Origin: a virus
Direction: 5' to 3' (one strand)
IMG/VR virus record: IMGVR_UViG_3300029825_000003
Location: 1-64,000 of that record
Length of the DNA: 64,000 bases
Each line of letters starts with the position of its first letter. Position 1 is the first letter of the stretch. Below the pieces are notes generated by a model, which saw only the letters and a list, made by a program, of their open reading frames with translations, ran no database searches and was not told where the DNA came from. A program made the translations under genes and the position numbers. Of this stretch, positions 986 to 43,612 are shown piece after piece.

Positions 986-3274
986 TTATTGGCGTTTAAA
1001 CCAGCCCCAATAATATTTCATATAAAGAAAGATCACGCCTAACAATCCTAAAAATGGGTCTACCCACAATTCTGTTGTTTTTTCTGGCATCTCATGTTTA
1101 ACTATTTTCCAATCTTTGATTTTTATCTCTTCGTATGGGGTCTTCACAGTTACATCTAATTTATCTTCATCAAATACCCCTAATTCCTTAATCCAATCTG
1201 CTTGATGTGGTATATCCCCTTCCCAATAATCTAAAGTTGTGAAGTTGGTATAAATTACCCCGTTATTGTTTTTATTGCGTTCTCCAACCATTAAATTATG
1301 AACTGATGAATTACCATCATATTCATATGTAATCTTCGTGAGGGATGTTCCATTAGCTTTTACTGCAAAATAAGTCGGGTAAACGTGAATTACCCCTGTT
1401 ATATTTTCAGTTTTTGGGAGAACACTTGGAGCAGGAATTGAATCATTAAACACTGCTACAGATGTATGCTTTTTCCCTTTTTTCCATGTTCCAGTCTTTT
1501 GGTCTTTAACAAGATTGTACCACTTCATTTTTACCGTCAGTGTTGCATAAGCTGTCTCATTCTCAATATGAACATCTACGGTCTTTTCAATTTTAGAACC
1601 TCCTCCTCTCCATCCGATGAGATCAGGTGACTTAATAGCTTCATATTTGACCATGACAGCATCTTCAGAAGGAATATAAGGTACTCCCTCAATGAAAATT
1701 TCATCTTTGAAGCCGATTAACTTGATTCCCCCGTAGATTTTGCCTTTTGAAGTCTTCTCAACTTCATAATTTATACTGTCTGCTGTTTGGCCTGTAACTC
1801 CGGTATCAGTAAATTCTACATCTAAAATACTAAAAATAGAGTCAAATTCCCTCTCAGGAACAGGCTCATAATCAATGCCCTCAACCTTTTCGTCCACTTC
1901 AACATGAGAATCCCATACAGTCTTCTCAGCCGACACATAATCACATTCCCATCCAGATCCAGTCCAACGCCATCCCGTACTTGCAGGATCTATCTTAGGA
2001 TCTTGAATTAAGTCGTTCCCTGAACATTTATTATAATTTCCTCCTGCGTTCTCCCAAAGGACATTTCCTTCAGAAATTATATTATGCGAGTGAGAAAGAG
2101 TATTCGAAAGCCCATATCCCACACCAGACCCTGTATTGCGACCCTTTTTCGAGTTTGTAATAATATTGTCCTTCACGGTAATATCAAAGTCTGCTCCTGT
2201 CTGCCCCGTAGGGAGCCCCTTGACTTTGTATGTCACTACTCCCGCATTTGAACAACCGTCAAAAACATTATTATAAATATTAACATTATGAACTACAGAA
2301 GTCAAGACCCCACCCTGCCAGTCTCTTCCGTCCCATCCAGTACTTAAAAACGCATTGTGGTGGATTTTTATATCCGTCAGGTCTTCATCATAATTATTAT
2401 TATCTCCAACAATCCAAAGCCCCGGCCCGCCTGTGCTCACAAAAACATTATTGCAGATTTCTACATCCATTTCCTGCTTTTCAATTACGTCAACTTGCCC
2501 ACCTGGACCCGCGCTCTCTCTCGCTGTGCAGGTAATGTAATTGTCATGGATGTAAGCGTTATCACTACCGCGAATTCTGAATGCATTGTTTATTCTGCAA
2601 TTGATTTTACAGCCATACATTTCAATATTTGAAGAACGTATAGCAAAAAGAGCTTCGTGCCCAAGCCGTTCAGCTTCAATATTATAAAATTTAATGTTTG
2701 TGCATTTTATAGGTCTGAGGAAATCCCCTAACGAATTTTCACCTGAACAATCGTGAACAGATATCCCATCACAGCCTGTCGGCATGATAAAATTATAGAA
2801 GCCCCTTCCCGTGATTAAGTCAGGTTGCCCACCCGCGTTACCGTCAAAATGTATCCCGATAATCTCAATATTTTTACAGTTATTTGCTCGGATCATCGGG
2901 ATCATCGTTTTTGCGTACCCCTTTGTGGCAGCATGTTTATACTCACTCCCAGAGAGTCTATTTGCATTATCGGGAAGTGTAATTGTTGTTTGTCCCTGCC
3001 CATCGAGTACTGTGTCAGAATCCAAAATGATAGGGTCATTTATACAAAAATCACCAGAGAGATAAACTGTATCTCCTTCTCGGATTGCTTCATTGATTTC
3101 TTTTTGGTCGGCTGCGCCATCTGTTGTCCATGTTTGGTCTCCGCATTGTACAGTCCCTGCTGATGCTAATCCGGTGAAAAATAATAGTAGGATAGGTATC
3201 ATGATGATTGAAAAATGGATCATATTAAGTCGTACTTTCTCAAAGGCTGACACTACATCACCGTGGTACAACAA
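986..3274 (-). CDS. Secreted, C-terminally membrane-anchored right-handed parallel beta-helix protein, disaggregatase-related (likely start 3220)
   Basis: Signal MIHFSIIMIPILLLFFTGLASAG; motifs DGT.DQ.EIN.A, GRGFYNFI, LGHEA, GPGLW, GG..TS...NNVFDG; C-terminal TM. Confidence 0.8.
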   Translation of the reverse strand: MLYHGDVVSAFEKVRLNMIHFSIIMIPILLLFFTGLASAGTVQCGDQTWTTDGAADQKEINEAIREGDTVYLSGDFCINDPIILDSDTVLDGQGQTTITLPDNANRLSGSEYKHAATKGYAKTMIPMIRANNCKNIEIIGIHFDGNAGGQPDLITGRGFYNFIMPTGCDGISVHDCSGENSLGDFLRPIKCTNIKFYNIEAERLGHEALFAIRSSNIEMYGCKINCRINNAFRIRGSDNAYIHDNYITCTARESAGPGGQVDVIEKQEMDVEICNNVFVSTGGPGLWIVGDNNNYDEDLTDIKIHHNAFLSTGWDGRDWQGGVLTSVVHNVNIYNNVFDGCSNAGVVTYKVKGLPTGQTGADFDITVKDNIITNSKKGRNTGSGVGYGLSNTLSHSHNIISEGNVLWENAGGNYNKCSGNDLIQDPKIDPASTGWRWTGSGWECDYVSAEKTVWDSHVEVDEKVEGIDYEPVPEREFDSIFSILDVEFTDTGVTGQTADSINYEVEKTSKGKIYGGIKLIGFKDEIFIEGVPYIPSEDAVMVKYEAIKSPDLIGWRGGGSKIEKTVDVHIENETAYATLTVKMKWYNLVKDQKTGTWKKGKKHTSVAVFNDSIPAPSVLPKTENITGVIHVYPTYFAVKANGTSLTKITYEYDGNSSVHNLMVGERNKNNNGVIYTNFTTLDYWEGDIPHQADWIKELGVFDEDKLDVTVKTPYEEIKIKDWKIVKHEMPEKTTELWVDPFLGLLGVIFLYMKYYWGWFKRQ

Positions 3275-3384
3275 GTACCTATATGTTTAAATACATTTGC
3301 GCATATATGGTATGACCGTGTTGTGTCGATTATTATTTATACAAGATAAAATAAGATAATACTCAAAACCTACAAAGTGATAAC

Positions 3385-3570
3385 ATGGCATACACTGAAA
3401 CCGAAACTGAGATAACTGACACAGTAACGCTTAGAAAACAGAAACAGCGTGGAGCAGGTACTATATACATTAAACCTGAGTTCTTCGAAAGGATAGAACT
3501 GCCGAGAGACGCATCATTGAAAATGACCTATGATAAGATAGAAAAGAAGATAAAAATTGAATCGCTTTGA
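3385..3570 (+). CDS. AbrB/MazE-like small DNA-binding protein
   Basis: GTIYIKPEFFERIELPRDASLKMTYD swapped-hairpin pattern. Confidence 0.55.
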   Translation: MAYTETETEITDTVTLRKQKQRGAGTIYIKPEFFERIELPRDASLKMTYDKIEKKIKIESL

Positions 3571-3730
3571 TGAAAAAATAAGAATTATTGAGGCCCAAGC
3601 TGCCCGGCATGAGCCCCATAAGATCCCCTTGTTAGGAGAGATTTTGAATGAACATGACAAACTATGTAATCTATACTAATATACTTTTCTGTACTGGACT
3701 GAAGACTGCCCCTCTTTCTCAGGTGATCGT

Positions 3731-4285
3731 ATGAATCTCGATTTCTTGACAAAACCTGAGAAACTGTCTCTTTTGAAAGCTCTTGTCCAGGACCCTGAAA
3801 TTCAAACTGAAGTGAAAGAATGGTTTGATACGATGCTCCTGGCGTCTGAACTTCGTCCAATTCAGAGACTCGCGAAACTTGAAGAAATTACCGGACTCGA
3901 AGAACCCGAAGAAGACGAAGTAACAATACCACAGCAGATTTCCCTCATTAATGAAAGAATTGACTCCATCGAAGAAAATGGAGTCACACAGAAGCCCACA
4001 GAGCCTATAATACTACCATCTGAAGGTGTAGCTGACAATAGAGCCATAATTCTCGCTCAGGAAGCTCTAAAAGCTAAAGAAGAAGGAATTACCTTTTTTG
4101 GTTCAGGAAAGATCAATGCAATTCTGAGAAATGTTGTTCCCGAAGAATATCGGGTTAAAGCGGGACAAAATATAGGACAAGCTAAGAAAGAAGCTTTTGC
4201 AAAGTTAGAAACCTTTTTCCCTGGTACTTTCCGGCTCGATAAGAAGCCATTTGGAAGGCATGAGATTCGATTAGTTTTTTCGTAA
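3731..4285 (+). CDS. Coiled-coil protein with conserved C-terminal domain (paralogue of 49899..50471)
   Basis: C-terminus IL..VPEEYRV...NI....KEAFAK....FP...RL.K......IRLV aligns by eye with 49899..50471. Confidence 0.7.
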   Translation: MNLDFLTKPEKLSLLKALVQDPEIQTEVKEWFDTMLLASELRPIQRLAKLEEITGLEEPEEDEVTIPQQISLINERIDSIEENGVTQKPTEPIILPSEGVADNRAIILAQEALKAKEEGITFFGSGKINAILRNVVPEEYRVKAGQNIGQAKKEAFAKLETFFPGTFRLDKKPFGRHEIRLVFS

Positions 4286-4290
4286 GAAAT

Positions 4291-4521
4291 TGTAAGAATC
4301 TTATGGATGGTTGGGAAAAAGACGACTGAGCGAGAAGGAGAAAAGCAAGGGTTTTCAGTAAGTAAAAAATAAAGCTTGTCTTTAAGTTGGCATGACTCTT
4401 GTAAAGTTTGTTTGTTGTTGTTCTCGGTTAGCGTAGAATATAGTAGAGAAATATAGTAAAAATGAGATTGAGAGAGATTGTTGGGTTTATTTTTTGAAGA
4501 TAATATGTAAGATCCTTATGG
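4291..4521. repeat. Two 16-bp imperfect direct repeats TGTAAGA(AT/TC)CTTATGG at 4291-4306 and 4506-4521, each holding a TAAG-N3-CTTA palindrome
   Basis: Read directly; 14/16 identical; they flank a non-coding stretch. Confidence 0.7.
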
Positions 4522-4531
4522 TTTCTTATGA

Positions 4532-4774
4532 TTGGTTTTTCACAGTTTAACATCATACAAACATTTAAGTATTTTACCGTCATATTTACCGTCAATGGAA
4601 CGTACTTATTGGATTACAAAAAACAGAGTGATATGCCCTTTACCGTTCCCTATAAAAGAGCAATTACAAGACAAAGGAATTGAATTTGAAAATAACGGAA
4701 TTGCTGATTATAAGGTAGTAGGTAAAAAGGTAGTAATTGAGTTTAAGAAAAAGAAGGTGAACGAAGAACAATGA
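4532..4774 (+). CDS. Small AbrB-like / hypothetical protein (likely start at MERTYW)
   Basis: ORF; beta-rich basic C-terminus. Confidence 0.5.
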   Translation: MVFHSLTSYKHLSILPSYLPSMERTYWITKNRVICPLPFPIKEQLQDKGIEFENNGIADYKVVGKKVVIEFKKKKVNEEQ

Positions 4775-5094
4775 CTGAAGGACAATTCAAATTGACCCCT
4801 GATATGATTGAAACTGAATATTACAGGATTAGAACGGTTATGGGGAAACTTACGACCTCTAAACTCCCGTTTCTAAATTCTGATGAAATAAACGAATTTA
4901 ATATAATCGGGTACACTGGTAAAAATTCAAAAGATGAAAAAATTAGTCAGCAGGATTACTTAAACTCTCTAGGCAAGGGTGTTATCAATATGTTAATTAC
5001 TCAATTTGATACTGGTGATTTCATTGAAGAATATATAATTGTGAGAATTAATGTAAATGAACTGTTTTCTGAGGAATGGGAAATCAGAAAATGA
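4771..5094 (+). CDS. Hypothetical protein
   Basis: ORF coupled to upstream gene by ATGA overlap. Confidence 0.65.
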   Translation: MTEGQFKLTPDMIETEYYRIRTVMGKLTTSKLPFLNSDEINEFNIIGYTGKNSKDEKISQQDYLNSLGKGVINMLITQFDTGDFIEEYIIVRINVNELFSEEWEIRK

Positions 5095-5351
5095 CTAAAC
5101 ACCGACTATTCACTACTAAAATATGGCTCTTAATCATCCTTCTTGCTCTTGTTGCTGAATATATATATTTATCAGCTGAAACTGAGGGAATCGTGGATAA
5201 GATTAAGACAGATATACTGGCCGAAGCAATACCGGAAGCAAGTTTTTTAGATGACTCGTGTTCTGAGGATATCTCTGAATGCGAGGACGAATTCGAAGGT
5301 TTTTTGATCACGATTCAAACGAAAAACCATTATTACGAACTAAAATTATGA
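5076..5351 (+). CDS. Single-TM membrane protein
   Basis: IWLLIILLALVAEYIYL hydrophobic helix, acidic tail. Confidence 0.6.
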   Translation: MGNQKMTKHRLFTTKIWLLIILLALVAEYIYLSAETEGIVDKIKTDILAEAIPEASFLDDSCSEDISECEDEFEGFLITIQTKNHYYELKL

Positions 5352-5358
5352 GGGTATT

Positions 5359-5676
5359 ATGAATAAACTGACTAAAATTCTACTATGTTTATTTTGTATC
5401 GCTCTGCTTTGCAGTATCTCTTTTGCCTACCCAGAGCCCGGTGCTGGCAATGGTAAATCAAAAAAGATAGTCCAAGTACATACCGGGGAACTCACGGAAA
5501 AACACGAGTCGAACGGCCATTATTATGTACTGTTGCAAAATGACGATGAGGACATGTCATATTCGGTACATATTACAAAAAACAAATACAGGAGTGCTAA
5601 AATTGGGGAATATTATGAATGGAAGAGGATAATTTATCCTGGTGGGAAGGAGAGTGTTTCTTTCCACAGGATTTAA
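5359..5676 (+). CDS. Secreted small protein (signal peptide)
   Basis: MNKLTKILLCLFCIALLCSISFA signal; RBS-like GAGGG upstream. Confidence 0.65.
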   Translation: MNKLTKILLCLFCIALLCSISFAYPEPGAGNGKSKKIVQVHTGELTEKHESNGHYYVLLQNDDEDMSYSVHITKNKYRSAKIGEYYEWKRIIYPGGKESVSFHRI

Positions 5677-5838
5677 TTAATTTTTTTCAAAAGGGGATAT
5701 GGATATGAGTCGTAAAAGAATAACCTCTGGAAATGATTTTTGGGCTAATGTTGAGGAAGCGATGACGAAAAATCAACCGCCTGTTAAGGAATGGACTTTT
5801 TTGTATGAAGTTAATTGGGCTAATCGTGAGGTAAGGAC

Positions 5839-6108
5839 GTGACCGAAGAATTTCTGTTTGATGTTGAATTTACCGTTAAAGCAAGAATAAAAATCAACAG
5901 AGAAGTCTTTAACCAAGCTGACGAAGACTGGAAAAAACAGTTTTATGATATTGATACAGATTCAGATATAGTTGAGATGATTGCTTATAATCTTCTGCAA
6001 GGAAGAAAACTATCACAGTTGGATGGTTTTGCTAATCTGTCTGATAAGTTGGCTGTGTGGGTGCAATATCCTGATTATGAAGTCGAATCAGTTAATGAGG
6101 TAAAATAA
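5839..6108 (+). CDS. Hypothetical phage-type protein (GTG start)
   Basis: ORF in tightly packed operon. Confidence 0.6.
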   Translation: MTEEFLFDVEFTVKARIKINREVFNQADEDWKKQFYDIDTDSDIVEMIAYNLLQGRKLSQLDGFANLSDKLAVWVQYPDYEVESVNEVK

Positions 6109-6536
6109 TGAACCATAAAATCTCTTTTAAAGCCTGGGACAAAAACCTAAAAAGATGGATATGTAATTGGGTAATGTGTATACCTGCACATTACGAAGGT
6201 TCTAAATATCCCATAGAACACGGTGGAATAGATTATATGTGTGTCTATGTCAAATCAAGTGAAGAACATACTGATTGTGAGTTAGTGCATGTAACCACGA
6301 AAAAAGACAAAAATGGGATAATAATATGCGAAGGAGACTTCCTGAAATATGATGATCCTTACAAACATACTGCTCATAAATTCCCTTATCTCATGAGGTG
6401 GAGCGAAGATGAGTGTTGTTTTGAATGTATAAATTATCTTAATTATATGATACCTGATGTATGGTGCGAAATGGAAATTGTAGGAAACCGTTTTGAAAAT
6501 CCCGAATTGTTAGAAGAGGTTGGAATTGATGTTTAA
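6108..6536 (+). CDS. YopX family protein
   Basis: N-terminal ISFKAWDK and C-terminal EIVGNRFENPELLEE; DKNG..I.EGD motif. Confidence 0.85.
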   Translation: MNHKISFKAWDKNLKRWICNWVMCIPAHYEGSKYPIEHGGIDYMCVYVKSSEEHTDCELVHVTTKKDKNGIIICEGDFLKYDDPYKHTAHKFPYLMRWSEDECCFECINYLNYMIPDVWCEMEIVGNRFENPELLEEVGIDV

Positions 6537-6658
6537 GGAGGATTGAGATCATCGTTATTAAATTAACCCCCAACAACAAACTAACAAAAGAACAGACAGA
6601 ATTTCTTCAAAACATTGCAAATCAATTTTCAGAAATATTAACTGACACTTGTTCTGTT

Positions 6659-6865
6659 ATGACTGAAACAATTAAGGAACTTCAGGAACAACATAAAGGA
6701 GAAGATGCAACTTATATCTGCAAGGAATATTCACCTGATACCTGCAGGTTTCAGTGTAAATTACTTGTAAGCCCTTGGACTTTCATGCCTCCGTGGTCAT
6801 GTGTGGATGGTGGTGGAAATTGCGAATGGGAATTGGTAGTGGATGAGTCAAAGACGAAAACGTGA
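6659..6865 (+). CDS. Cys-rich hypothetical protein (frame open upstream to about 6541)
   Basis: ORF; C-x7-C-x3-C...C-x5-C. Confidence 0.55.
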   Translation: MTETIKELQEQHKGEDATYICKEYSPDTCRFQCKLLVSPWTFMPPWSCVDGGGNCEWELVVDESKTKT

Positions 6866-6918
6866 GATGCCGTGTTACAAAGCATTGTTGAAGAAAATAA
6901 GAGAGGTGCTGAAGAGAT

Positions 6919-7239
6919 ATGAACGATGAAGAACTAATACCTGACGTCTTAGAACTGTCTCAAACTACTCCGTATCGATATCACGAGGTATTGAGTTTAT
7001 GCAAGCTATACACTAACACTTATGGAGTGGATTTCAGAGATATAATTAACAGGTATAAACAAGCAGGGGAATTATCTAAAGCATATGATTTTTTAAGGGG
7101 GTCAATGATTGCATGGGAAATAAACGAAATGATATCTGAAAGTAATCCAATTGATTTTGAGAAGTGGACTTATCGCTCGGATACAAATAACAGAAAGAAA
7201 GAGAAGTTACCTAAGAAATTCAGAAATGGATGGAAATGA
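6919..7239 (+). CDS. Hypothetical protein
   Basis: ORF with GAGG RBS-like signal. Confidence 0.6.
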   Translation: MNDEELIPDVLELSQTTPYRYHEVLSLCKLYTNTYGVDFRDIINRYKQAGELSKAYDFLRGSMIAWEINEMISESNPIDFEKWTYRSDTNNRKKEKLPKKFRNGWK

Positions 7240-7240
7240 A

Positions 7241-7519
7241 ATGCCTGATAGTTGTTTTTCAAAATGGAAAGATAAAGAAGAATTAGATATTGCTCGATTC
7301 TATAAAGTCTCCGGGCTTAACAGATCCGATGTTATTAGGGTGTGCTCGGAAGCCGGGGTAGCAGAAGACGAATTTATAACAACTCTATCAAAAACTACAA
7401 AATATGCTTATCAGAAGTTATTTTATGCTTTGTATGAGTTGTTTGAATTGAAGGAGTTTTGGGTTTTGTTTGTGATATTCTGGATAGGACTTGGGTTGAT
7501 TTTTGTTTTTATTAAATAA
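7241..7519 (+). CDS. C-terminal TM membrane protein (start MPDSCF within track ORF 7151..7519)
   Basis: FWVLFVIFWIGLGLIFVFIK helix; start follows upstream stop. Confidence 0.55.
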   Translation: MPDSCFSKWKDKEELDIARFYKVSGLNRSDVIRVCSEAGVAEDEFITTLSKTTKYAYQKLFYALYELFELKEFWVLFVIFWIGLGLIFVFIK

Positions 7520-7851
7520 TACTCTTTTTTTTTAAACTTCTCAAAAACATTTATCACCCCAAACTATCCATTTTAACGAGTTTCGTTTAAAAAAATGGAT
7601 ATAAATTCTAACTTTTATTTTTGCGTAGATATGTCTAAAAAAGTAACATATTTGTTTAGTTCAAAAACGATAACAATTGACACTACTAAAAAGTGCCTAT
7701 GCGTTTCTAATATTAATTTTGTATTATATTTAATGTGTTTAATTTATTGTAATTTTATAAACATCACCGCATTTTAAGATTATACATTTTTTATTTTTAT
7801 ATCTAATTTCAATTATACGAAGTGTAGTATGTTCTTATAAACGTCCGTTTG

Positions 7852-7901
7852 TTGTCACCATAAACGTATGAGACATGTTTAAATAGTATTGTCACCATAA
7901 A
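7852..7901. repeat. 13-bp direct repeat TTGTCACCATAAA (7852-7864, 7889-7901) just upstream of the resolvase; candidate res/operator subsites
   Basis: Exact repeat; short palindromes nearby (AAACGTCCGTTT). Confidence 0.7.
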
Positions 7902-7908
7902 TACATTT

Positions 7909-8547
7909 ATGGGAATTGAAGAAAAAAACAAAGTGTCTTTGGGATATGCCAGAACATCCAGAGAAGAACAGAATATTTCAAACCAACTGCGTAAATTGCG
8001 TGAGATTGGGTTAGAGCCTAAAAACATCTATGATGATGAAGGAGTTTCCAGCTTAACACCTGCAAAGAAACGGAAAGGGTTTAAACAAGTCTTTGAACGT
8101 GTGAAAAACGGAGAAGTAGATAAATTATATGTCTTTGAAATATCGAGACTTGGGAGAACATCAGGAGAGTCCTTGCAGCTATTCATAGAGATTGAATCAT
8201 ACGGCACTATGATAATGTCGCTCTCTAAAAATGAAGCATGGACGCAGATAACAGACATCCCCGGAATACGAAATATATTCTCTGCTCTGTTTAGTTGGTT
8301 TGCAGAACTCGAAAGGAATTCCCTCGTTGAACGAACAAAGATAGGTATTGAGAGAGCAAGAGCGGAAGGTAAAACCATAGGCAGACCTGAGAGACAGCCT
8401 GACAAGAAAGAATATCTTAAGTGGAAAAATCAAGGGCTGAAAACTGCTCAGATCGCTAGGGTTATGCAAGTGCCTACATCTACTCTGTATAAATGGGTTG
8501 AGAGATGGGAAGAAGAAGAGAGAGTTAAGAGGAATAAAGAGGCTTAA
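7909..8547 (+). CDS. Small serine recombinase (resolvase/invertase family) with C-terminal HTH
   Basis: GYARTS..EQ catalytic Ser motif, SRLGR, ER...ERT..G...ARAEGK.IGRP, HTH. Confidence 0.95.
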   Translation: MGIEEKNKVSLGYARTSREEQNISNQLRKLREIGLEPKNIYDDEGVSSLTPAKKRKGFKQVFERVKNGEVDKLYVFEISRLGRTSGESLQLFIEIESYGTMIMSLSKNEAWTQITDIPGIRNIFSALFSWFAELERNSLVERTKIGIERARAEGKTIGRPERQPDKKEYLKWKNQGLKTAQIARVMQVPTSTLYKWVERWEEEERVKRNKEA

Positions 8548-8550
8548 AAA

Positions 8551-9480: not shown

Positions 9481-9518
9481 AAACGGACTTAAGACAAGAT
9501 AAGAAGGAGAGAAAATAA

Positions 9519-9653: not shown

Positions 9654-9665
9654 CGGTGAGGGAAA

Positions 9666-9884: not shown

Positions 9885-9886
9885 AA

Positions 9887-33141: not shown

Positions 33142-33492
33142 TTATTTCCCTTCCTCCTTCTTAGGGACAGTCTTAATTAATCTATTATTCCACGCAATAC
33201 AATCATGTATCATCTCTTTTGCCTTTTCCTCGTCAATCGTTCCGTCTTCACCAGGAGCTAACATCCTGAGATAATCAACGAGTTCGTCATCCATATTTAA
33301 CTTCGTAAGCGCGTTCCCGTTCTGTTTTTTGACTGCGTGTATAATTTCTGAGGGGACTATCAATTTGGATAGCCAAATGTCAATATATCCCTTTTTCAAG
33401 AGATATCCTACAAATCCACTAATAGCAACCCCTACAAAAGCCCCACATTTCTCAAGAATTGCTATCGTGGCGTCATCAATTATAATAGACAT
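33142..33492 (-). CDS. Single-TM holin-like membrane protein
   Basis: GAFVGVAISGFVGYLL TM with GxxxG; charged C-terminus. Confidence 0.5.
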   Translation of the reverse strand: MSIIIDDATIAILEKCGAFVGVAISGFVGYLLKKGYIDIWLSKLIVPSEIIHAVKKQNGNALTKLNMDDELVDYLRMLAPGEDGTIDEEKAKEMIHDCIAWNNRLIKTVPKKEEGK

Positions 33493-33567: not shown

Positions 33568-33882
33568 TTAATAATTCTCCTCGATCAAGTTTTTCAGGTC
33601 AGTAAAAACAGGATTACTCAAGATCTCTTTCCCGTCTGCAATCAGTTTCTGGGCTTCCTCGTTTGAGATGTCCCCGTCGCTTGCAGCAAGTTCAAGGGAA
33701 TTTAGTAGGCTACCAAGATTTGAAAGGAGTCCGAGAATAAGCCCGCTCTCTTCTACAAACAATTTTATAGAGTTTTCAGCAAGTCGAAGCTGTGGGGAAA
33801 GTTGTTTTAGTTTCAGAGCAAGTACAGCGGAGGCCGTTGCGAAAAGTACAGTTAAAAGTCCTATAAAAGGTTGCGCGTCCAT
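33568..33882 (-). CDS. Holin-like membrane protein
   Basis: N-terminal TM (FIGLLTVLFATASAVLAL), amphipathic helix, DG.I+.EE motif. Confidence 0.55.
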   Translation of the reverse strand: MDAQPFIGLLTVLFATASAVLALKLKQLSPQLRLAENSIKLFVEESGLILGLLSNLGSLLNSLELAASDGDISNEEAQKLIADGKEILSNPVFTDLKNLIEENY

Positions 33883-33958: not shown

Positions 33959-34501
33959 TCAAACCTTCAAATAGATTTCCATTACTCTTCCCCCAATATG
34001 GGCTTTGAGGTCTTCTGAGAGGTTCATTGCGTCCTGTTCAGAGGTACAAATAATTTGAATACGTGCAGGAGTTCCAACAGGCATCTCTTCTTCTACAGGA
34101 GGTTTACCTGGGTCTACGACAGGATCTGTGACAACGTCTTCATACGAATAAGTGTAAGTACACAATTTCATCAGTGCTTTTGCAGTTCCTGACGTTTTAA
34201 GCCGCCATCGAAGAACCACATCCTTTCCGGCACCCACAAAAATATCAACAGCTTTACTTTTCTGCTGATAACTCGTTTTCCCTTCTTCCCATGTTGCAAG
34301 AGGTTCGGCTTTCCCGTCAAGAGTTATCCAAGCGGTAGCAGTTACCCCGAAGGCAGCCGCCAAAGAGCAACCTATGGAAGAAATTCTTATTTTCTTGCCT
34401 TCTTGCCCTCGAATGGTTACGGTTTTTTGTATGCAGCCCGTCTTTGCACAGTCTTTGTATAGTGTTGTGTACACATTTCTAACATCAGTTACTATGGTCA
34501 T
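33959..34501 (-). CDS. Stand-alone beta-sandwich domain homologous to the repeated domain of the tail protein (putative glycan-binding subunit)
   Basis: GKK.R+...C.LA.A..G.TA.A.+T...SY...I+...V.+...+TS.TA..A.M...+TY aligns with two segments of 38789..43612. Confidence 0.65.
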   Translation of the reverse strand: MTIVTDVRNVYTTLYKDCAKTGCIQKTVTIRGQEGKKIRISSIGCSLAAAFGVTATAWITLDGKAEPLATWEEGKTSYQQKSKAVDIFVGAGKDVVLRWRLKTSGTAKALMKLCTYTYSYEDVVTDPVVDPGKPPVEEEMPVGTPARIQIICTSEQDAMNLSEDLKAHIGGRVMEIYLKV

Positions 34502-35751
34502 TATGCACGCCTCAATATTGTTCTTCTAGGATACTTTTCCTTGATAGTCTTAAGCTCATTTTCCGAACAATCAAACATCAAAAAAGCCGGATTTTCAATT
34601 ACTGGCTCAGGTTTTTCAACAACATTATAAAGATCTCTGACATTTCCAGAATATGAATTCCCCTGAGCTATAACTTTTGTATATTTTTGTGGTTTCAAAT
34701 TACACAATGCAGTACCGGAAGCAGTGCCTACCGTATTACTTCTTTTAGTCCCATTGAAAATATTATTTTTCACAACTGCTGAATATCCTGAACCGGAAGC
34801 AGACACCGAAACGTATTCCCCAAACAAAACACCATACCCGAGACATCGACTAAATGTGTTTTGTTCGACCACTACATCATCCCAGCCCTCACATGTTATT
34901 CCGCCTACACCAGGGATATGATGATAATCTGAATCCATATTTCCACAGTTCGAAAATAGATTATTTCTAACTGTCAACCCCGACGCTGCCGATACGGATT
35001 TGTTAGACGTCCCGATAATCCAGATCCCCGGCCCCCATGTGTCATGCACGTCATTATTTTCTATTATAATATTTCTAGAGGACATTCCAGATGTACTATT
35101 TTCTACCTGCATCCCAGGACTCGATGCCCGCCCTCCATTTTTGTTGATAATATAGTTCCCATGCACATGTCCGCCGTCAACGTGTCGGAGCCTGCATCCT
35201 GAATTTGTCCGGAGTTCCACGTAATTATCAAAGACGTCGATGTTTTGGCCTTTATCGATGTATACCGCATCATGCCCACACCGAACGATTTTATTTTTAT
35301 AATAGTTAACATTTTTTACATTTGTCAGGCGTGCGCCGTCCCCCATACTGTCATGGATATGACAATCATGTATTGAGATGCCGGATGCTCCTGAGAGTCC
35401 TATGAAATTGTGAAATCCTTTTCCGAGAATTGTAGTTTGATTATTTGAATTTCCATCAAATGTCAATCCTGAAAACTCAAACCCCGTTCCTCCATAGACT
35501 TTAGAACCGATAACGGGAGTCATCGAGGGAAAAATGGAAGTAGAAATGTGATCTTTTAGCCGGAAGACTGTATTATTTCCGGAGAGTTTCACACCAGGGA
35601 AGAATTTAACAGGGGATGCAATTTCAATATCATTTGTGGAAAAAATAAATTCAGTAGGCGTGTTGCCTGCGGTATTAATGAGATTTTGTAATTTTTGTGA
35701 GGAATCAATAGAAGAACCTACAGAGACGGTTTTCATATTAAGAAGTAACAC
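34501..35751 (-). CDS. Disaggregatase-related beta-helix protein without signal peptide (putative endolysin equivalent)
   Basis: GKGFHNFI, DSMGDG, CGHDA, RTNSGCR, WGPGIW, GGIT...+EQN.F; TAATG-coupled to 33959..34501. Confidence 0.8.
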   Translation of the reverse strand: MLLLNMKTVSVGSSIDSSQKLQNLINTAGNTPTEFIFSTNDIEIASPVKFFPGVKLSGNNTVFRLKDHISTSIFPSMTPVIGSKVYGGTGFEFSGLTFDGNSNNQTTILGKGFHNFIGLSGASGISIHDCHIHDSMGDGARLTNVKNVNYYKNKIVRCGHDAVYIDKGQNIDVFDNYVELRTNSGCRLRHVDGGHVHGNYIINKNGGRASSPGMQVENSTSGMSSRNIIIENNDVHDTWGPGIWIIGTSNKSVSAASGLTVRNNLFSNCGNMDSDYHHIPGVGGITCEGWDDVVVEQNTFSRCLGYGVLFGEYVSVSASGSGYSAVVKNNIFNGTKRSNTVGTASGTALCNLKPQKYTKVIAQGNSYSGNVRDLYNVVEKPEPVIENPAFLMFDCSENELKTIKEKYPRRTILRRA

Positions 35752-37631: not shown

Positions 37632-38786
37632 TTATTTACACTGATTTTTCTTTGCTGTCTTAACCGCTTTTGAAACCTGCCCGATATAATCATAAGCGGT
37701 CTTTCTCACTTTTCCCAAATCAAGGGACGTTGTATAATCCCCACCATCTATTAAATGAGATATCCTTTTCACAGTCAAATTAGTATGAATATAATCTCCG
37801 TTTAGATCAATCGAAGGAAACTTGCATTGAACAAGGTCGCATAATTCGACCTCGGGGGTTCCCATTAAAACAGCCTGTCCTGAGACTTCAGGAGTTTTGG
37901 CTTCGGTTAGTAGTCCAGTTGCTATAGTTTTACATTGGGGGGTACTTTTCACCCATGTCTGAGTCTCAACAGCCGCCCGCCGCCCATAGAGCGTGCTTAA
38001 CGCGGTATCCTCATCGTAATCAGTATACTGAGAGCCACCCGATGGCGTATCCCCATTCACTCTATAATAAGTTCTTACTCCTGTTCCTGCTATTTCAAAG
38101 TCTGCACTTAATACTCTCGGAGTGCCTTCAATTATTTTGTACTTATCTGTGGCAGTCGCGGGAAATGCTTTCCATTGAATATATCGAGTTGATAAATTAC
38201 CATTTAGATAAGTAGGAACAATTTTTATAGCCCAATCATAACTCGCAACTTTCTCCATATCTGCAAAAAGATCTGACATATAAGTTTGATTTGCAGTAGT
38301 ATCATACTGTGGAAACGTTTTTCCAGTATCAGCATAACCAGAGTCATAAGTCAACCTTGTAAGATATTTTTGAGCATAATAAGATAAAACCGTCTTTGCG
38401 TCCTGAGATGTATGTGTGTAAGTCTCTGTTATGATAGCTGTTTCCGCTTCTGCTTCATGTCCTTGAGCATATATAGTGACATTATTATTATTGTCGGAAT
38501 ACTCGCAGGATAGATCCATTATTCGACCTTGGAAGATATCCTGCCAGATCGTTTTTTCATTGGGATTCATTTTTATTGAAACTTGCAACCTCACAATATC
38601 ATCGAATCTTAACTGAGAAATGTATGTAGACGTGGACCCTATTATATTGCTGGCAATTTCAATTTCAGCATATGAAATAGAAAAAGGATACGACTGTTGA
38701 GTGCTTGCCCTTAGCACAGAAGGATAATATTTTTCATGAGTTGTAGGCTTTTCAATCACTAAACGAGTTTGAACCCACCTGATCAT
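37632..38786 (-). CDS. Tail tip / baseplate hub (Tal-like) protein
   Basis: Follows the Dit-like gene; +FQGRI...G.E...G..VLMG.PEV.L.D.V...V..ISH...YTTSLDLG. Confidence 0.7.
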   Translation of the reverse strand: MIRWVQTRLVIEKPTTHEKYYPSVLRASTQQSYPFSISYAEIEIASNIIGSTSTYISQLRFDDIVRLQVSIKMNPNEKTIWQDIFQGRIMDLSCEYSDNNNNVTIYAQGHEAEAETAIITETYTHTSQDAKTVLSYYAQKYLTRLTYDSGYADTGKTFPQYDTTANQTYMSDLFADMEKVASYDWAIKIVPTYLNGNLSTRYIQWKAFPATATDKYKIIEGTPRVLSADFEIAGTGVRTYYRVNGDTPSGGSQYTDYDEDTALSTLYGRRAAVETQTWVKSTPQCKTIATGLLTEAKTPEVSGQAVLMGTPEVELCDLVQCKFPSIDLNGDYIHTNLTVKRISHLIDGGDYTTSLDLGKVRKTAYDYIGQVSKAVKTAKKNQCK

Positions 38787-38788: not shown

Positions 38789-41700
38789 TTACACCAACAT
38801 GTCGGCATCTCTATATTTCAGTGTCACAATTACGCTAGACGTTGAATCAACAACCGCCCCGAATGTGTTTACCTGCCCTTTGAATATTTTTGGATGTTCA
38901 GCGTCTATCGTTACAAGGCTTGCATACATGAAAATAGAGTTTATCCTGAGTGTATCAGTTCCACCACTCGCAATTTTTAGATGGAATTTTGTAAGACCGT
39001 TCAAGATGCAATCAGTTCCACTGTTCAAGAGCCTATAAGCCTGAGCGTTGCTGATATCCGTTGTTGTATTTCCATCGAGAGGATACCAAGTTCCGGGGCT
39101 TCCCGCGTTATCTTTAGCTATATAGATAGTCGGTGCTCCTGACATAACATTTAGGACAATGTAAGGAATCCCGGTGATTGGGTATTTTGTGTCGAATTTA
39201 TAAATCAAATACCCTGTAGCATTAAACAAGAGCATCTTATAATCATCATAATAAGTAACATAAGCAGAATCGGTAACTGTATATTCATATGCTGTATCTG
39301 CAAAATTTTCACTATACTGATAACTTCCCGTTCCATCTGCGTTTATTGTAATTTTACAGCCAGGTTTCAACTCGTTACAAACTTCCATCCGAGTAAGAGT
39401 ATCAGCCTCGTTATAAATTGAAATAGCAGAGGATGTCACGGAAGGGATAATTTCAGTGTAAGTAAAAGCAAAATTATCCATATATGCTCTGCCGGCTGTA
39501 CTTGAAGTTCTCATATATACTTTGATTGTAACAGTTTCATTCGTTGCTGAATAAATTTCACTATTATATTTTCTTGTAGCATACGAGGAAAGCCTAGTAG
39601 TAGACGAGAATACAACAACCTGCGTTTCCGCACCTGAATTAATGGAAGCGGCTTTTACCGTCACTCTTGCATATGCCGTTAATCCTGAAACGTTAGCAGT
39701 TGCCAATAAACAAGCAAATTGGTCAAGTCTATATTTTTTTCCGTCTGTGAGTGCAGGGAGAACATAAGTAAACTCTAGAGAATATGAAGTCAGATATTCA
39801 GAATGAATATCTGGATCTGTATACGTTTTTGTATCTCCATCGGTTTCATTCGTTCCGCTTTTTGAGGTGATTGCAGTCACTTCAACATCAGGGATAATAT
39901 CTACATGTCCGGTAGTTGTGATGTCCTGCCCTGTAGTACCAAGTTCAAAATCGGAAGCTCTTTCAATCAAAACGTCATCGCAATATACCTTCGCTCCTGA
40001 ATTTAGAGTGTCAACTCCATGAATCCGGATATAGGCATCGACAGGGGCAGTATCAAATCTTATTGTATCCTGCAATTGGGAATATTCACAGTCGGCATCC
40101 CAGAGAAGCTGAGTAATTATCGAATTTCCAGAATAGATATCAACAGATAATTGACCATGAGTTAAACCGGTTACTGCTCCCCATGCACTGACCACGTAAG
40201 AAACCCCTGGATCAAACATAATGTACTGAGTTGAACGCCCGATGTCTTCTGTAAGTCCATCCCCTGATATCTCTAACGCATATAAACCGTCATGTGCAAC
40301 TGAATCACTTCTAGTCTGCCCTTCGCTTTCAAGAGTCCAGCTAGCCGGGGTTTGAATGCCTCCATAATCAGAGGAGGTCATTATCCTGTTATTTGATCCT
40401 GTAGAACTTACTGATACAAACTGATTAAGATCAGAAGAATAACAGACAGAATTCCAGTTATTGTCGGCAGGAGTGTCACAGAGAACCCAATTAGCCGCAT
40501 CATTTGACCTCATTGCTCTGTTTCCTGTACCCGACTTCGCAACACATACCAAAACCGAGTCTTCAGGAGACCATGTAAGCCCCTGCCATGCGTTGTAGGT
40601 ATATGAGACAGTTGCTCCACCTGCTCCATCGAATTCAGTTACTTCATATCCTATAAGGGTAGCATACGCCCTATAAGACGAATTCGAGGATTTCATATAA
40701 CACTGAATAGTTATTGCCTCATTTGCAGCCGTTTCAAATGTTACATCCAGTGTTTTGTCTTCATACGTCTGAGAGACAGAAGAGAATTCAGCCAGAACTG
40801 TTTCTGTTTTTGTTGCGGTTGTTGCGGTAATTTTTATCCATGCTGTTTGTCCGGTCTGTGCGGTCCTTAACTGGCAGAATACCCGGTCAATTCTCCAAAT
40901 GTGATTATTTGTAAGGGCTGCAACTGAGAGAGTAGGCCCACCAGGATATTGAGTAGAATAAGCTGTGACTCCAGAACTATATACCCATCCTTCGGTTGTT
41001 GTAGATGTCGTTGTAGCTACATCAGTTCCAGTTCCAGGGGTAACTATAGACCCACATACAGGAGTTGTCTGCAAGGTCCATTCATCACCATCAGGAGAAG
41101 TTACAATCTGCTGAGTTCCATCTTCAGTACATGCAACAAAAAGACCAAGTGTTTCAGCCCATACAACACTCTTAAACTTCTGAGCAGGAGAAGGTACAGA
41201 AGAAGCTAAATTCCAAACTTCACCATAGTCAACAGAACTCATTATATTTCCATCATAGGAAACCGCAACCAATTTTAGGAGGGATTGTGAGTAACAAACT
41301 GAAACCCAAGTGTTTGCATCTTGGGTATACGTTGCAATTGACCACGTTACTCCACCATCATCTGAATACATGGCTCTGCCAGTACCTGATGATGCAACCG
41401 CGACATAACGGTAGACAAGATCAACGTCGTCCCTAACATAACATACAGAATTCCAGTTGTTATCGGCAGGCGTGGTTCTCGCAGTCCATGTTATTCCATC
41501 GTCTGAAGTCATGCACCTGTTTCCAGACCCTGAAGAAGATACTGCAACCCATCTTCCCGGCAAGAGGTTCCCACCATCAAGCCCGATGGAATACCCCCAC
41601 GCAAGCCCCCTCCAATTATTATTACAATTTGTTGCGCTTGTGAGTCCAGAAGGAACTGACCATGTATCACCGTCAGAGGATATCTGAACGCCATTATTGC

Positions 41701-43612
41701 TCCCACCCGAAGCAACCGCGCAATATTTTGCAAGCTCTCTTGACCATCTCACACAAGTCCATTCAATATCCGCTACACTCGTAGCAGTTGCCCAGGTCAT
41801 CTCGCTTGAAGTAGCCCAATCCTCAAAAGAAGGATTTTTCAAGAGATTACCAGCGTAAGTATCATCTGCGGACCACGTACTCGATCCATATACATGCCTG
41901 CCCCTTACCTTCTGAGAGGCACTTTCTTTGTGAGGTTTTTCCATTTGGTATAAAATAGAATAAGGCTTTGCATTCTCAGGGACATCGGTTGTAAGTCTCA
42001 ATTTAGAACTATGGTCAACCGTGAGACCCCTGCACAGTGTACCCGCATAAGGACCGCCTAATTCTAGCTTAGACTGACCTCTTGAAGTGTCGTACCATGC
42101 AGCCATAACCTCATCTAATTCATCAATAGAAAACGCAAAACAGTCTATGACAAGCCCCGTCCCCTTGAACCCAAAGTCTGTTAAGTTATCTCCTTCTATG
42201 CCCGGAGCTTTCTTTTGTCCTACTGATTTACCACCGTCAACGGCTAATTCTTGCCAATTGAATTTTACCCCGTTTATGTAGCCCTGTCTTGGTTCAGTTG
42301 AATCATAATAATTGGTTAATTCCTCTTGAATAATCCGTATCGGAGGGATATATCTTGTAGTAGGGGTTGTTGTCCCCCCGGTTGAAGATCCTCCTGAATA
42401 TGCACCGTTTGAGGTTGTAGAAGTTGAGATTGGAGTAACTTGATAGTAGTCTCCTGTAACATTTCCGCTTGAATAATTTTCTTCTGCGTATACAGCCATC
42501 TTGGATGGAACCATATTCAAGATTCCGTATCCGCTAACAGGAAGCATACGAGTGGGATCTGTTGCGAGAGTAACCTTCGTATTCAGAATATTGTTATTAT
42601 TTACCTGCATTGTGCAGCCTGAAGCAATGGAATCGAGAACAACAATTCCAGCATTATAACAGCCTGAAATTGTATTATATTCGATAGTAAGCCCATTACC
42701 CCACTTCCAGAGACCAATACCGCCGTTATATTTGATGTTATGCATCCATCCACACGCGGTTATTGTATTATTCCAAATATGAACAGTCTGTGCGGTTGTC
42801 CCGGCTGCTCCATAGGCATCCATCAGGAGAATGCCCACGCCTGCTCCGTCAGTTATTGTATTTTCGTAAATGTTAATATTTTGAGTAAGACGTGTTAAAC
42901 CGTATGAAGCAGGTTCGTTCCCTATCTGAATTGCTCCGTTCCCGTTTGCCCCGGTTCCTGCGTATTTGTGAGTGTCATTATCATGGATGTTAATATTTTG
43001 ACAGTTGTCTAGTCTCACACATGAATTACACTTCTGAACGATGTCATTAGTATAGATATCTCCACCAACCACATCTATGAAGAATACGCCCTCATGTCCC
43101 ATTACGTCAACGTCATTATAATAATATTTGATATTTTCACCATGAGTAAGCCTCAATCCATCCCCTAAACTGTCATGGATTTTCATATTATAGACGGAAA
43201 TATTCTTCACCGGACTACTCGCAGTGCCGGTTATCTGGATACAATTATAATAGGCATCTCCCTCAGATTCCGTTTGATTGGCTCTGTTTCCATCAATCTC
43301 GAAACCGTGAATTTTTATATTGACGGAGGCATGACCATTACCTTCATACTGCCTAATGATTCCAACCATTGAAGCCCAACCAGCATTATTTTTCAGGCGA
43401 AGGCAGGCAGTAGAATCACCGGTTAATTCAGTATTATCCCCTAGGAGGACAGAGGTTTGAATATCGTAAGTACATGGACCTTTTAGGTATACAGTACTTC
43501 CAGGATTAGCGACAGCCGCCGCTAGTGCAGAGTTTATTTCAGATTGGTCATTTGTCCCGTCTACAATGTATGTAGCCCCTGAACCTGAAGGACCTACCGT
43601 GTAAGTAGTCAT
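38789..43612 (-). CDS. 1607-aa multidomain tail protein: disaggregatase-like beta-helix + Dit-like + CBM4/9-like + BNR-type propeller + repeated beta-sandwich
   Basis: Directly downstream of TMP; N-terminus DGTNDQSEINSAL..VYLKGPCTY.I...GDSTA; NLLKNPSFE; SSDG.TW repeats. Confidence 0.82.
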   Translation of the reverse strand: MTTYTVGPSGSGATYIVDGTNDQSEINSALAAAVANPGSTVYLKGPCTYDIQTSVLLGDNTELTGDSTACLRLKNNAGWASMVGIIRQYEGNGHASVNIKIHGFEIDGNRANQTESEGDAYYNCIQITGTASSPVKNISVYNMKIHDSLGDGLRLTHGENIKYYYNDVDVMGHEGVFFIDVVGGDIYTNDIVQKCNSCVRLDNCQNINIHDNDTHKYAGTGANGNGAIQIGNEPASYGLTRLTQNINIYENTITDGAGVGILLMDAYGAAGTTAQTVHIWNNTITACGWMHNIKYNGGIGLWKWGNGLTIEYNTISGCYNAGIVVLDSIASGCTMQVNNNNILNTKVTLATDPTRMLPVSGYGILNMVPSKMAVYAEENYSSGNVTGDYYQVTPISTSTTSNGAYSGGSSTGGTTTPTTRYIPPIRIIQEELTNYYDSTEPRQGYINGVKFNWQELAVDGGKSVGQKKAPGIEGDNLTDFGFKGTGLVIDCFAFSIDELDEVMAAWYDTSRGQSKLELGGPYAGTLCRGLTVDHSSKLRLTTDVPENAKPYSILYQMEKPHKESASQKVRGRHVYGSSTWSADDTYAGNLLKNPSFEDWATSSEMTWATATSVADIEWTCVRWSRELAKYCAVASGGSNNGVQISSDGDTWSVPSGLTSATNCNNNWRGLAWGYSIGLDGGNLLPGRWVAVSSSGSGNRCMTSDDGITWTARTTPADNNWNSVCYVRDDVDLVYRYVAVASSGTGRAMYSDDGGVTWSIATYTQDANTWVSVCYSQSLLKLVAVSYDGNIMSSVDYGEVWNLASSVPSPAQKFKSVVWAETLGLFVACTEDGTQQIVTSPDGDEWTLQTTPVCGSIVTPGTGTDVATTTSTTTEGWVYSSGVTAYSTQYPGGPTLSVAALTNNHIWRIDRVFCQLRTAQTGQTAWIKITATTATKTETVLAEFSSVSQTYEDKTLDVTFETAANEAITIQCYMKSSNSSYRAYATLIGYEVTEFDGAGGATVSYTYNAWQGLTWSPEDSVLVCVAKSGTGNRAMRSNDAANWVLCDTPADNNWNSVCYSSDLNQFVSVSSTGSNNRIMTSSDYGGIQTPASWTLESEGQTRSDSVAHDGLYALEISGDGLTEDIGRSTQYIMFDPGVSYVVSAWGAVTGLTHGQLSVDIYSGNSIITQLLWDADCEYSQLQDTIRFDTAPVDAYIRIHGVDTLNSGAKVYCDDVLIERASDFELGTTGQDITTTGHVDIIPDVEVTAITSKSGTNETDGDTKTYTDPDIHSEYLTSYSLEFTYVLPALTDGKKYRLDQFACLLATANVSGLTAYARVTVKAASINSGAETQVVVFSSTTRLSSYATRKYNSEIYSATNETVTIKVYMRTSSTAGRAYMDNFAFTYTEIIPSVTSSAISIYNEADTLTRMEVCNELKPGCKITINADGTGSYQYSENFADTAYEYTVTDSAYVTYYDDYKMLLFNATGYLIYKFDTKYPITGIPYIVLNVMSGAPTIYIAKDNAGSPGTWYPLDGNTTTDISNAQAYRLLNSGTDCILNGLTKFHLKIASGGTDTLRINSIFMYASLVTIDAEHPKIFKGQVNTFGAVVDSTSSVIVTLKYRDADMLV

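Follow-up and report, generated by a model that had tools for sequence, protein, structure and literature searches.

The stretch of viral DNA analysed here (the window, 64,000 nucleotides: bases 1-64000 of the 73,512-bp IMG/VR record IMGVR_UViG_3300029825_000003) encodes three true paralogues that match Pfam PF08480 (Disaggr_assoc; gathering cut-off 22.6 bits). They are referred to below as copies i, ii and iii, or as A-, B- and C-type proteins. Sequence comparison supports a single enzyme family, shared with the disaggregatase-related proteins encoded on Methanosarcina chromosomes and occurring in this virus in three distinct protein contexts. The three genes, and the beta-helix domains of the two longer proteins, are as follows.

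986..3274, minus strand: copy i (A-type), an open reading frame (ORF) of 762 amino acids (aa); PF08480 113.5 bits
1955..3157, minus strand: beta-helix catalytic-type domain of copy i, from alignment; keeps D (GDF), R, H-E (GHE) and R
34501..35751, minus strand: copy ii (B-type), 411 aa when read from its ATG at 35736; PF08480 82.8 bits
38789..43612, minus strand: copy iii (C-type), 1607 aa; PF08480 51.7 bits
42413..43612, minus strand: beta-helix domain of copy iii, residues 1 to about 400, from the three-way alignment

Three paralogues of one family

Similarity among the three copies is far above chance. In pairwise BLASTP comparisons, copies i and ii are 29% identical over 304 aa (expectation value (E) 6e-34), copies ii and iii 30% over 373 aa (E 9e-29), and copies i and iii 27% over 399 aa (E 4e-23). 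Each also matches PF13229 (Beta_helix). From the 421 ORFs in the record, a hidden Markov model of the three recovers just these three, with the next match at E 0.55, and a six-frame PF08480 scan of the record returns the same set. Amber read-through is absent: all three genes end in TAA, with further stop codons nearby. An earlier note, made from the DNA alone, had reported one motif series in all three ORFs, and this is borne out by alignment, PF08480 and BLASTP. The three-way alignment gives DQ.EIN.A, G.G(F/Y)(Y/H)N.I, (L/M)GD(G/F), GH(E/D), GPG(L/I)W and GG(V/I), except that the GPG(L/I)W of copies i and ii is replaced by GVGIL in the tail copy iii. The alternative that these are unrelated beta-helix families failed against E values of 4e-23 to 6e-34.

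The earlier note had also tied this assignment to conserved catalytic residues, and candidates for these are present. With residues numbered from the ATG of copy ii (35736), the near-invariant polar positions in an alignment of 78 viral and chromosomal sequences are Asp133 in GDG (99% acidic), His155 (77 of 78), Asp/Glu156 (95%) and Arg182 (76 of 78), together with Arg136 and Gln210. Asp133, Arg136, His155, Asp/Glu156 and Arg182 are kept in all three copies. Gln210 is lost in copy iii, where position 210 is A, as it is mostly G/A across the C-type clade. The conserved residues are retained, with few exceptions, in 8 A-type, 19 B-type and 15 C-type homologues, and Asp133, His155, Asp/Glu156 and Arg182 are nearly invariant over 78-150 viral and cellular sequences. 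Being spaced about 22 apart, they would occupy the same place on successive coils of the helix. The Asp / His-Asp(Glu) / Arg set is thus a candidate active site.

No solved structure was found for the disaggregatase-type (PF08480) family. The AlphaFold (AF2) model of copy ii is a right-handed beta-helix with a predicted local distance difference test score (pLDDT) of 96 and a predicted template modelling score of 0.89. Foldseek matches of this model were re-aligned for Z score and root-mean-square deviation (rmsd). The closest structures are the A-modules of the mannuronan C-5 epimerases AlgE4 and AlgE6 (Z 38.9, rmsd 2.0-2.1 Å), which align over 329-332 residues of 377, with both proteins covered end to end, and score about 4 Z above the next match, gp12 of phage phi29 (Z 34.7). 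Tailspikes and phi29 gp12 match at Z 30-35. Further matches include an alginate epimerase/lyase, inulin fructotransferases, polygalacturonases (GH28), GH87 enzymes, polysaccharide lyases and RbmB lyase, and viral beta-helix proteins are found among the structural matches in BFVD. The AlgE modules are also the sole sequence matches in the Protein Data Bank (PDB), at E 2.6e-7 with a profile of the three copies and E 1.8e-9 with a C-type profile.

The family extends well beyond this virus. At E <= 1e-3, a profile of the three domains picks up 876 proteins in a set of 1.84 billion representatives, and 302 of these reach E <= 1e-30. The viral profile is matched along positions ~5-389 of its 396 by 20 chromosomal copies from two Methanosarcina genomes, at E 1e-63 to 1e-96. 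PF08480 scores are 52-114 bits for the three viral copies versus 240-310 for chromosomal ones. Other Methanosarcinaceae genomes, beyond the main Methanosarcina clade, encode PF08480 proteins too, among them metagenome-assembled genomes (MAGs) of Methanolobus, and a pattern-based search of genome contigs gave 4 loci.

An unrooted IQ-TREE phylogeny was built from 36 domains: 3 from the window, 2 from a provirus of Methanosarcina mazei type, 4 from the 51.8-kb Logan contig SRR26839088_3491, 1 from a short contig, 20 encoded on Methanosarcina chromosomes and 6 from further Methanosarcinaceae. Each of the window copies belongs to a different clade, A (support 100/100), B (100/100) or C (97/94), and each clade is common to 2-3 viruses. 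The nine A, B and C rows lie on one side of a branch with support 86/92, while 19 of the chromosomal Methanosarcina copies form a group of their own (67/96), with the three viral clades outside it. Because the viral clades are strongly supported, each common to several viruses and placed outside the chromosomal clade, the three types read as old paralogues within the virus group rather than recent captures. The proposal of one host-derived family stands as regards the family and its chromosomal copies, while a host origin is no more than possible: the phylogeny with host disaggregatases yields three strongly supported clades, but since it is unrooted no direction of transfer between host and virus can be read from it.

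Several copies per virus are usual, with 2-6 in five IMG/VR relatives and 4 in SRR26839088_3491. The fourth copy of that contig, a protein of 593 aa with PKD domains and a PF08480 score of 170 bits, clusters with cellular copies. Together with a Disaggr_repeat protein of the provirus, it looks like a more recent exchange with the host. Another copy on the contig, of 555 aa, follows a 1101-aa DUF2341 tail protein; the loci of these side copies are L001:1338-3119 and L003:5688-7355. A-type and B-type viral genes (L005, JBAYYO010000280.1; protein P0019) also occur on short contigs binned into Syntrophomonas/Eubacteriales MAGs, and these are probably mis-binned contigs of Methanosarcina viruses from digesters.

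The virus and the contexts of the three copies

The record is that of a complete, terminally redundant, siphovirus-like archaeal virus of 73.4 kb, of which the window covers most of the length. Its completeness is 100% by CheckV. A direct repeat of 99 nt lies at the termini (window 1-99; record 73414-73512), identical at 98 of 99 positions with one mismatch, which gives a unit length of 73,413 bp. The IMG/VR class of the record is 'linear', yet the sequence looks complete and terminally redundant. Against the GenBank phage collection, the record has neither a DNA nor a protein match.

The host is very probably Methanosarcina, because of the gene order and adjoining enolase of a related provirus, the similarity of portal/terminase DNA and the distribution of PF08480. 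The provirus (L004) sits in a 124-kb contig of assembly GCA_964434965.1, and reads tape measure, 1603-aa, 384-aa and 453-aa proteins, followed by an integrase and host genes. Its 1603-aa protein is 65% identical to copy iii, its 384-aa protein 63% identical to the viral counterpart and its 453-aa protein 56% identical to copy ii. The shared order of tape measure, C-type, 384-aa and B-type genes is matched by identities of 41-65%. The enolase adjoining the provirus falls in a 90%-identity cluster of M. mazei enolases, and the genome carries 8 chromosomal PF08480 genes (239-300 bits) in addition to 2 proviral ones (79 and 67 bits). The DNA around the portal and terminase genes shares 65-73% identity with stretches of other genomes in this genus, and among 14 control genomes PF08480 was found solely in M. 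acetivorans. A search of window 1-20000 against 59 genomes of the genus returned no perfect matches resembling spacers of clustered regularly interspaced short palindromic repeats (CRISPR), the only matches being provirus-like stretches of 65-89% identity.

Export signals and membrane segments were judged by hydrophobicity, which gives a signal peptide in copy i and its homologues and none in copies ii and iii. The contexts that the earlier note had assigned hold in most respects. Copy i has the signal peptide and C-terminal hydrophobic stretch of a secreted, transmembrane (TM)-anchored protein, conserved in its homologues. Copy iii is a probable tail protein with a disaggregatase-like N-terminus, lying directly after the tape measure as in the provirus. 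Copy ii lacks a hydrophobic N-terminus as described, but the genes called holin-like beside it match no holin family.

Copy iii is likely to be tail-borne, with a role in entry, to judge from its place after the tape-measure gene. Its ATG directly follows the TAA of that gene, and the 65% identical provirus protein has the same position. The two neighbouring tail genes are listed here.

43613..46639, minus strand: tape-measure protein (PF10145, 126.5 bits)
37632..38786, minus strand: 384-aa tail protein (phrog_400 'tail protein', E 4.6e-8; 63% identical to its counterpart in the provirus)

At window 43610-43615 on the minus strand, tape measure and copy iii are in one frame with a single TAA and then ATG between them; read-through would yield one product of 2,600 aa, although this arrangement is perhaps a coincidence. 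In copy iii, the N-terminal beta-helix is fused to a 1200-aa tail-module protein, which comprises about 180 poorly modelled residues, a seven-bladed Asp-box propeller with an insert, and several jelly-roll domains. In a model of residues 410-1607 (pLDDT 78), the propeller (Z 33.1) occupies window 39600-41800 (residues ~600-1090), carries Asp-box (BNR) motifs and an inserted domain of about 200 residues, and is followed by the jelly rolls. Weak BNR/sialidase sequence matches (E ~0.01) point to a possible second glycan-binding or glycan-cleaving activity. In two relatives (L030 and L035), a free protein of about 495 aa with a copy iii-type N-terminus follows a 1235-aa tail protein. The C-type domain is thus free in these relatives and fused in the window, a pattern of fusion or fission at the level of gene structure.

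The likeliest start of copy ii is the ATG at 35736, and the resulting 411 aa match the database entry. It has no TM segment, and neither it nor the 10 homologues inspected has a hydrophobic N-terminus. The protein consists of the beta-helix only, extended at the C-terminus by a linker rich in Pro and a strand-helix-strand tail (window 34501-34620), which are conserved in 15 B-type homologues. Three small genes follow.

33959..34501, minus strand: 180-aa partner, jelly-roll-like and carbohydrate-binding-module (CBM)-like; its start overlaps the copy ii stop (TAATG)
33568..33882, minus strand: 104-aa protein with one N-terminal TM segment, by hydrophobicity
33142..33492, minus strand: 116-aa protein with one N-terminal TM segment, by hydrophobicity; 37% identical to a homologue in L037

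The 180-aa partner has no match to PF06848 or to any Pfam, NCBIfam or PHROG family, and is similar to a part of copy iii, residues 1290-1386 (E 4e-5). A C-terminal 'tag' shared by copy ii and the 180-aa protein (33959-34060) was considered and rejected as not significant (E = 2). Where the window has the 180-aa gene, the provirus encodes a Disaggr_repeat/CBM96/DNRLRE protein (272 bits). An enzyme and a binding-type partner, encoded as two polypeptides, thus appear as a recurring pair. The provirus region L004:11409-12899 holds this free Disaggr_repeat/CBM96/DNRLRE protein and a 276-aa truncated beta-helix protein after the B-type gene, both of which look like a recent exchange with the host's own genes. 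The 104-aa and 116-aa proteins have no match to any Pfam or PHROG family, holins included, so that 'holin-like' is a description. In one relative (L037, IMGVR_UViG_3300025725_000003), a similar pair of small TM proteins follows the B-type gene. One of the pair is the 37% identical homologue of the 116-aa protein, which lies a short way downstream of that gene with two small ORFs in between. The pair is absent after the B-type genes of L003, L004, L030, L033 and L035, leaving L037 as the sole instance among six relatives.

For copy i, the ATG at 3223 is the likeliest start, with a TATA-like element upstream. Read from there, it has a textbook signal peptide with a hydrophobic core, ending ASA|G, and an (A/E)-A|G-T-(V/I) junction is found in most of the homologues inspected. 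At the C-terminus, a hydrophobic stretch is followed by basic residues, and both termini are conserved in full-length homologues. A module of about 300 aa precedes this membrane anchor; the C-terminal 320 aa have no match in NCBIfam, Pfam or PHROGs, and residues 440-735 no usable match in the ESM Atlas. Copy i opens an operon on the minus strand that spans the junction of the record ends; its remaining genes are listed in order.

503..892, minus strand: gene 2, 129 aa, with a signal peptide and, near the C-terminus, two hydrophobic segments; 42% identical to its L037 counterpart
369..494, minus strand: gene 3, 41-aa TM peptide, by hydrophobicity
1..364, minus strand: gene 4, N-terminal part of a 339-aa multi-TM protein; the gene crosses the terminal repeat in the circularised reading
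Downstream, outside the window: gene 5, 283 aa, two TM segments
Outside the window, record 69296-71917 (L029:5296-7917), minus strand: gene 6, putative VirB4/HerA-like P-loop ATPase of 873 aa

The 129-aa protein has no curated family match, and the 339-aa and 283-aa proteins have none in NCBIfam, Pfam or PHROGs. No archaeosortase-type sorting signal or enzyme was matched in the operon. The same order recurs in L001 (749, 120, 362, 288 and >544 aa) and in L037 (963, 125, 340, 282 and >507 aa). The arrangement conserved in the window, L001 and L037 is therefore enzyme, a protein of about 125 aa with signal peptide and TM segments, a multi-TM protein of about 340 aa, a protein of about 283 aa, and ATPase. 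At L037:13902-16793, the C-terminal 300 aa and anchor of copy i are kept (39% identity), while the heads differ (PF12708 and PF13229 in L037), which amounts to a head swap. The B-type cassette of L037 adjoins its A operon.

The ATPase has a Walker A motif at residue 293 and a sub-threshold match to Pfam DUF87 (E 1.3e-3). Its nearest Atlas clusters are annotated AAA_10/DUF87/VirB4/TraG (0.95-0.98), and precomputed annotations assign PF19044 to two of its homologues and PF01935 to one. A profile of the family against the PDB matches only VirB4 (4ag5, E 0.027) and DotL (E 0.12). Across 13 homologues, many Cys, His, Asp and Glu positions in the C-terminal ~130 residues are invariant.

The remaining recognised genes of the window are those of a tailed virus. 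The record also encodes a serine recombinase and a YopX protein.

19028-20551: large terminase
22563-24635: MCM helicase
47339-48055: tail tube protein
48071-48487: tail terminator
57909-58868: capsid protein
59483-60502: scaffold-like protein

Between the capsid and tail genes, window 52475-56980 encodes a 611-aa protein with no family match and a 743-aa protein with a Laminin_G_3/ConA-like domain; these may be head or neck fibres.

Proposed roles, substrate and alternatives

The shared domain most likely works as an enzyme that cleaves glycans, its target being the methanochondroitin matrix, which contains uronic acid. On balance, we consider it probable that three old paralogues serve a tail entry function, a signal-less B-type function and an anchored wall-opening function. 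The C-type domain, at the N-terminus of the tail-tip protein, would cut a path through the matrix at entry; its placement follows from synteny and its matrix-cutting activity is presumed. The 411-aa B-type enzyme would be made in the cytoplasm, paired with the small carbohydrate-binding-like protein, and would meet its substrate only after membrane breach or virion docking. It might then free progeny from the matrix, strip neighbouring cells, or both, exit being the weakest step. The A-type enzyme, exported and anchored at its C-terminus, would open the wall locally for an envelope-spanning apparatus, as VirB1-type enzymes do. This is the most likely role to judge from the conservation of the operon. 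The three types would have arisen via old duplication in the virus lineage and not through three recent host captures.

The earlier note had distributed the enzyme over entry, exit and remodelling of the cell surface. Its entry role is supported by gene order both here and in the M. mazei-type provirus. Its lysis role is weak, the pair of small TM proteins recurring in just one (L037) of six further relatives. As for surface remodelling, copy i is indeed predicted to be exported and anchored, but its conserved ATPase operon suggests an opening of the wall for a membrane apparatus. That reading is more specific than general remodelling, since the operon of membrane proteins and ATPase is conserved in three viruses, and the earlier suggestion that a pilus is exposed comes close to it.

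Several points weigh against the proposal. The common grouping of the A, B and C clades is only moderately supported (86/92), in an unrooted tree. None of the three copies has a Pfam match to Disaggr_repeat (PF06848). The methanochondroitin substrate is deduced from family membership and host. In HMMER alignments, the AlgE segment ...SGYGFDPHE... pairs with S(L/M)GD(G/F).R of copies i-iii, and the epimerase catalytic motif, YG(F/I)DPH(D/E), is absent there; the acidic residue of the next coil alone coincides (GLD in AlgE, GH[DE] in the copies). The chemistry may consequently be that of either a hydrolase or a lyase. In copy iii, Foldseek, VIA-wide and PDB profile searches recovered no Dit ring fold, propeller and jelly rolls being dominant, and residues 410-590, which bear on this question, are modelled at low confidence. 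The reading of the 873-aa protein as a type-IV-secretion-like ATPase draws on several weak signals, which support it without proving it. Lastly, the case for copy ii in exit is weak: it consists of the lack of a signal peptide and the two TM neighbours that recur only in L037, while the helix of copy ii matches a PHROG tail-spike family (E 1.5e-10) and the conserved tail at its C-terminus may serve as a peptide for docking to virions.

These last two features also favour the strongest alternative, which we regard as possible without preferring it: copy ii may be a second entry depolymerase, either docked on the virion through its C-terminal tail or the 180-aa partner, or free and stripping the matrix of neighbouring cells, in the manner of the halo-forming soluble depolymerases of bacterial phages. 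The strand-helix-strand tail stands behind a Pro-rich linker, and the 180-aa partner resembles a domain of the tail protein. In the provirus, the B-type gene comes just after the tail genes in the same orientation, has no TM proteins beside it, and is followed by the CBM96/Disaggr_repeat protein and another beta-helix protein. The free C-type proteins of L030 and L035 start with the beta-helix, which makes C-terminal attachment possible for this family. On the other hand, copy ii has no recognisable adaptor domain; genes on the opposite strand part it from the tail operon, and the two small TM proteins follow it, as in L037. An exit enzyme, a released enzyme and a virion-docked enzyme fit the data on copy ii about equally well.

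For copy i, a somewhat unlikely alternative to wall opening is that it acts on the coat of its own cell, independently of the ATPase operon, either dispersing aggregates so that carrier cells spread, or excluding superinfection through destruction of matrix or receptor. It is predicted to be exported and anchored like cellular surface enzymes, and a similar role has been discussed for a plasmid-borne disaggregatase-related gene of Methanosarcina (bioRxiv 10.64898/2026.10.06.756670). Aggregated M. mazei cells, moreover, resist the spherical virus MetSV (PMC12369344). Against this, the gene is always the first of the same five-gene membrane/ATPase operon in three viruses, and L037 swaps the enzyme head yet keeps the C-terminal module and the operon, which ties the protein more to the apparatus than to any one substrate.

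Whichever roles the copies play, their substrate could be another surface glycan, such as S-layer N-glycans or a different exopolysaccharide, and specificity could differ among them. The copies are just 27-30% identical, Gln210 is changed in the tail copy, PF08480 proteins reach beyond the main Methanosarcina clade (Methanolobus MAGs), and only the M. mazei enzyme has been characterised, most chromosomal paralogues being uncharacterised (PMC12369344). This alternative is nevertheless unlikely: the nearest solved folds act on polyuronates, and the partner module of a relative is CBM96-like, from a family defined as alginate-binding (PMC9971899), which fits a uronic-acid polymer.

A far-reaching extension of the wall-opening role, and one that we hold to be improbable, is that the anchored copy serves a virus-encoded, VirB4-type, conjugation-like apparatus that passes viral DNA directly between matrix-embedded neighbours. 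If this were so, one enzyme fold would serve virion entry, virion release and virion-independent passage from cell to cell. Least probable of all, and hard to credit, is that the domains are non-catalytic receptor-binding or adhesin modules: beta-helices do act as adhesins, and PfbA is among the structural matches, but Asp133, His155, Asp/Glu156 and Arg182 are nearly invariant and kept in all three copies.

Comparison with known systems

Methanosarcina are key methane producers in digesters, sediments and soils, and often form aggregates encased in methanochondroitin. To our knowledge, the mechanism by which tailed viruses pass in and out through this matrix is not known. The three copies are candidates for matrix-crossing enzymes and would represent the phage-depolymerase theme in an archaeal virus. 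They offer three candidates for expression: a depolymerase of the tail, an enzyme that lacks a signal but has a binding partner, and an anchored enzyme linked to the operon of a VirB4-like ATPase. These are possible tools for dispersing Methanosarcina aggregates, and could help to assign substrates and chemistry across the family of 876 detectable relatives.

Among the papers searched, none using the term 'disaggregatase' links the enzyme to a virus, and no published description was found. Closest is the preprint of 2026 on a disaggregatase-related protein encoded by a Methanosarcina plasmid (bioRxiv 10.64898/2026.10.06.756670). A 2024 review of archaeal virus entry and egress names methanochondroitin as an envelope component only, and lysis by tailed archaeal viruses is generally poorly understood (review PMC10791045).

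The closest relatives are the disaggregatase-related proteins of Methanosarcina. They have the same beta-helix of about 390 aa, can be aligned end to end with the viral copies, and carry the same Asp, His, Asp/Glu and Arg positions; copy i is also predicted to be exported, as the cellular enzymes are. Unlike the cellular proteins, which usually combine PF08480 with PF06848, the viral copies lack Disaggr_repeat, form separate clades and have lower PF08480 scores. They are encoded by a virus, copies ii and iii have no signal peptide, and copy iii is fused to a tail protein. The AlgE epimerases (AlgE4, 2pyg/2pyh; AlgE6, 5lw3; and the epimerase/lyase 8ja4) provide the best whole-domain fold match, also by sequence, and in both groups the known or presumed substrates are polymers of uronic acid, although the viral copies differ in lacking the epimerase motif.

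Like VirB1-type wall hydrolases, copy i is a predicted wall-degrading enzyme, exported and encoded beside a VirB4-like ATPase, a protein with signal peptide and two TM segments, and polytopic proteins. VirB1 enzymes are lytic transglycosylases, unrelated in fold and substrate to a beta-helix glycanase, and the element here is a tailed virus. Furthermore, unlike in VirB1/type IV secretion operons, the ATPase assignment is weak and no other type IV secretion family was recognised in the copy i operon. Copy ii in turn recalls the holin-endolysin cassettes of tailed phages and the PeiP and PeiW enzymes of Methanothermobacter viruses, in that a signal-less wall enzyme lies by small membrane proteins downstream of tail genes. 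It differs in that its neighbours have no holin match, the neighbourhood recurs in one other relative, the enzyme family is another one, and the target would be an outer matrix rather than a load-bearing wall.

Lastly, the right-handed beta-helix is shared with the tailspike and tail-fibre depolymerases of bacterial phages (HK620, Sf6, CBA120 TSP3, phi29 gp12 and Klebsiella capsule depolymerases). The location in the distal tail module, and the presence of several different depolymerases in one genome, are also common to both. In contrast to those proteins, the helix of copy iii stands at the very N-terminus, with no N-terminal adaptor, and would be attached via C-terminal parts. The host is an archaeon with methanochondroitin and an S-layer, and, of the two remaining paralogues, one is predicted to be anchored to the cell membrane and the other to be a stand-alone cytoplasmic protein.

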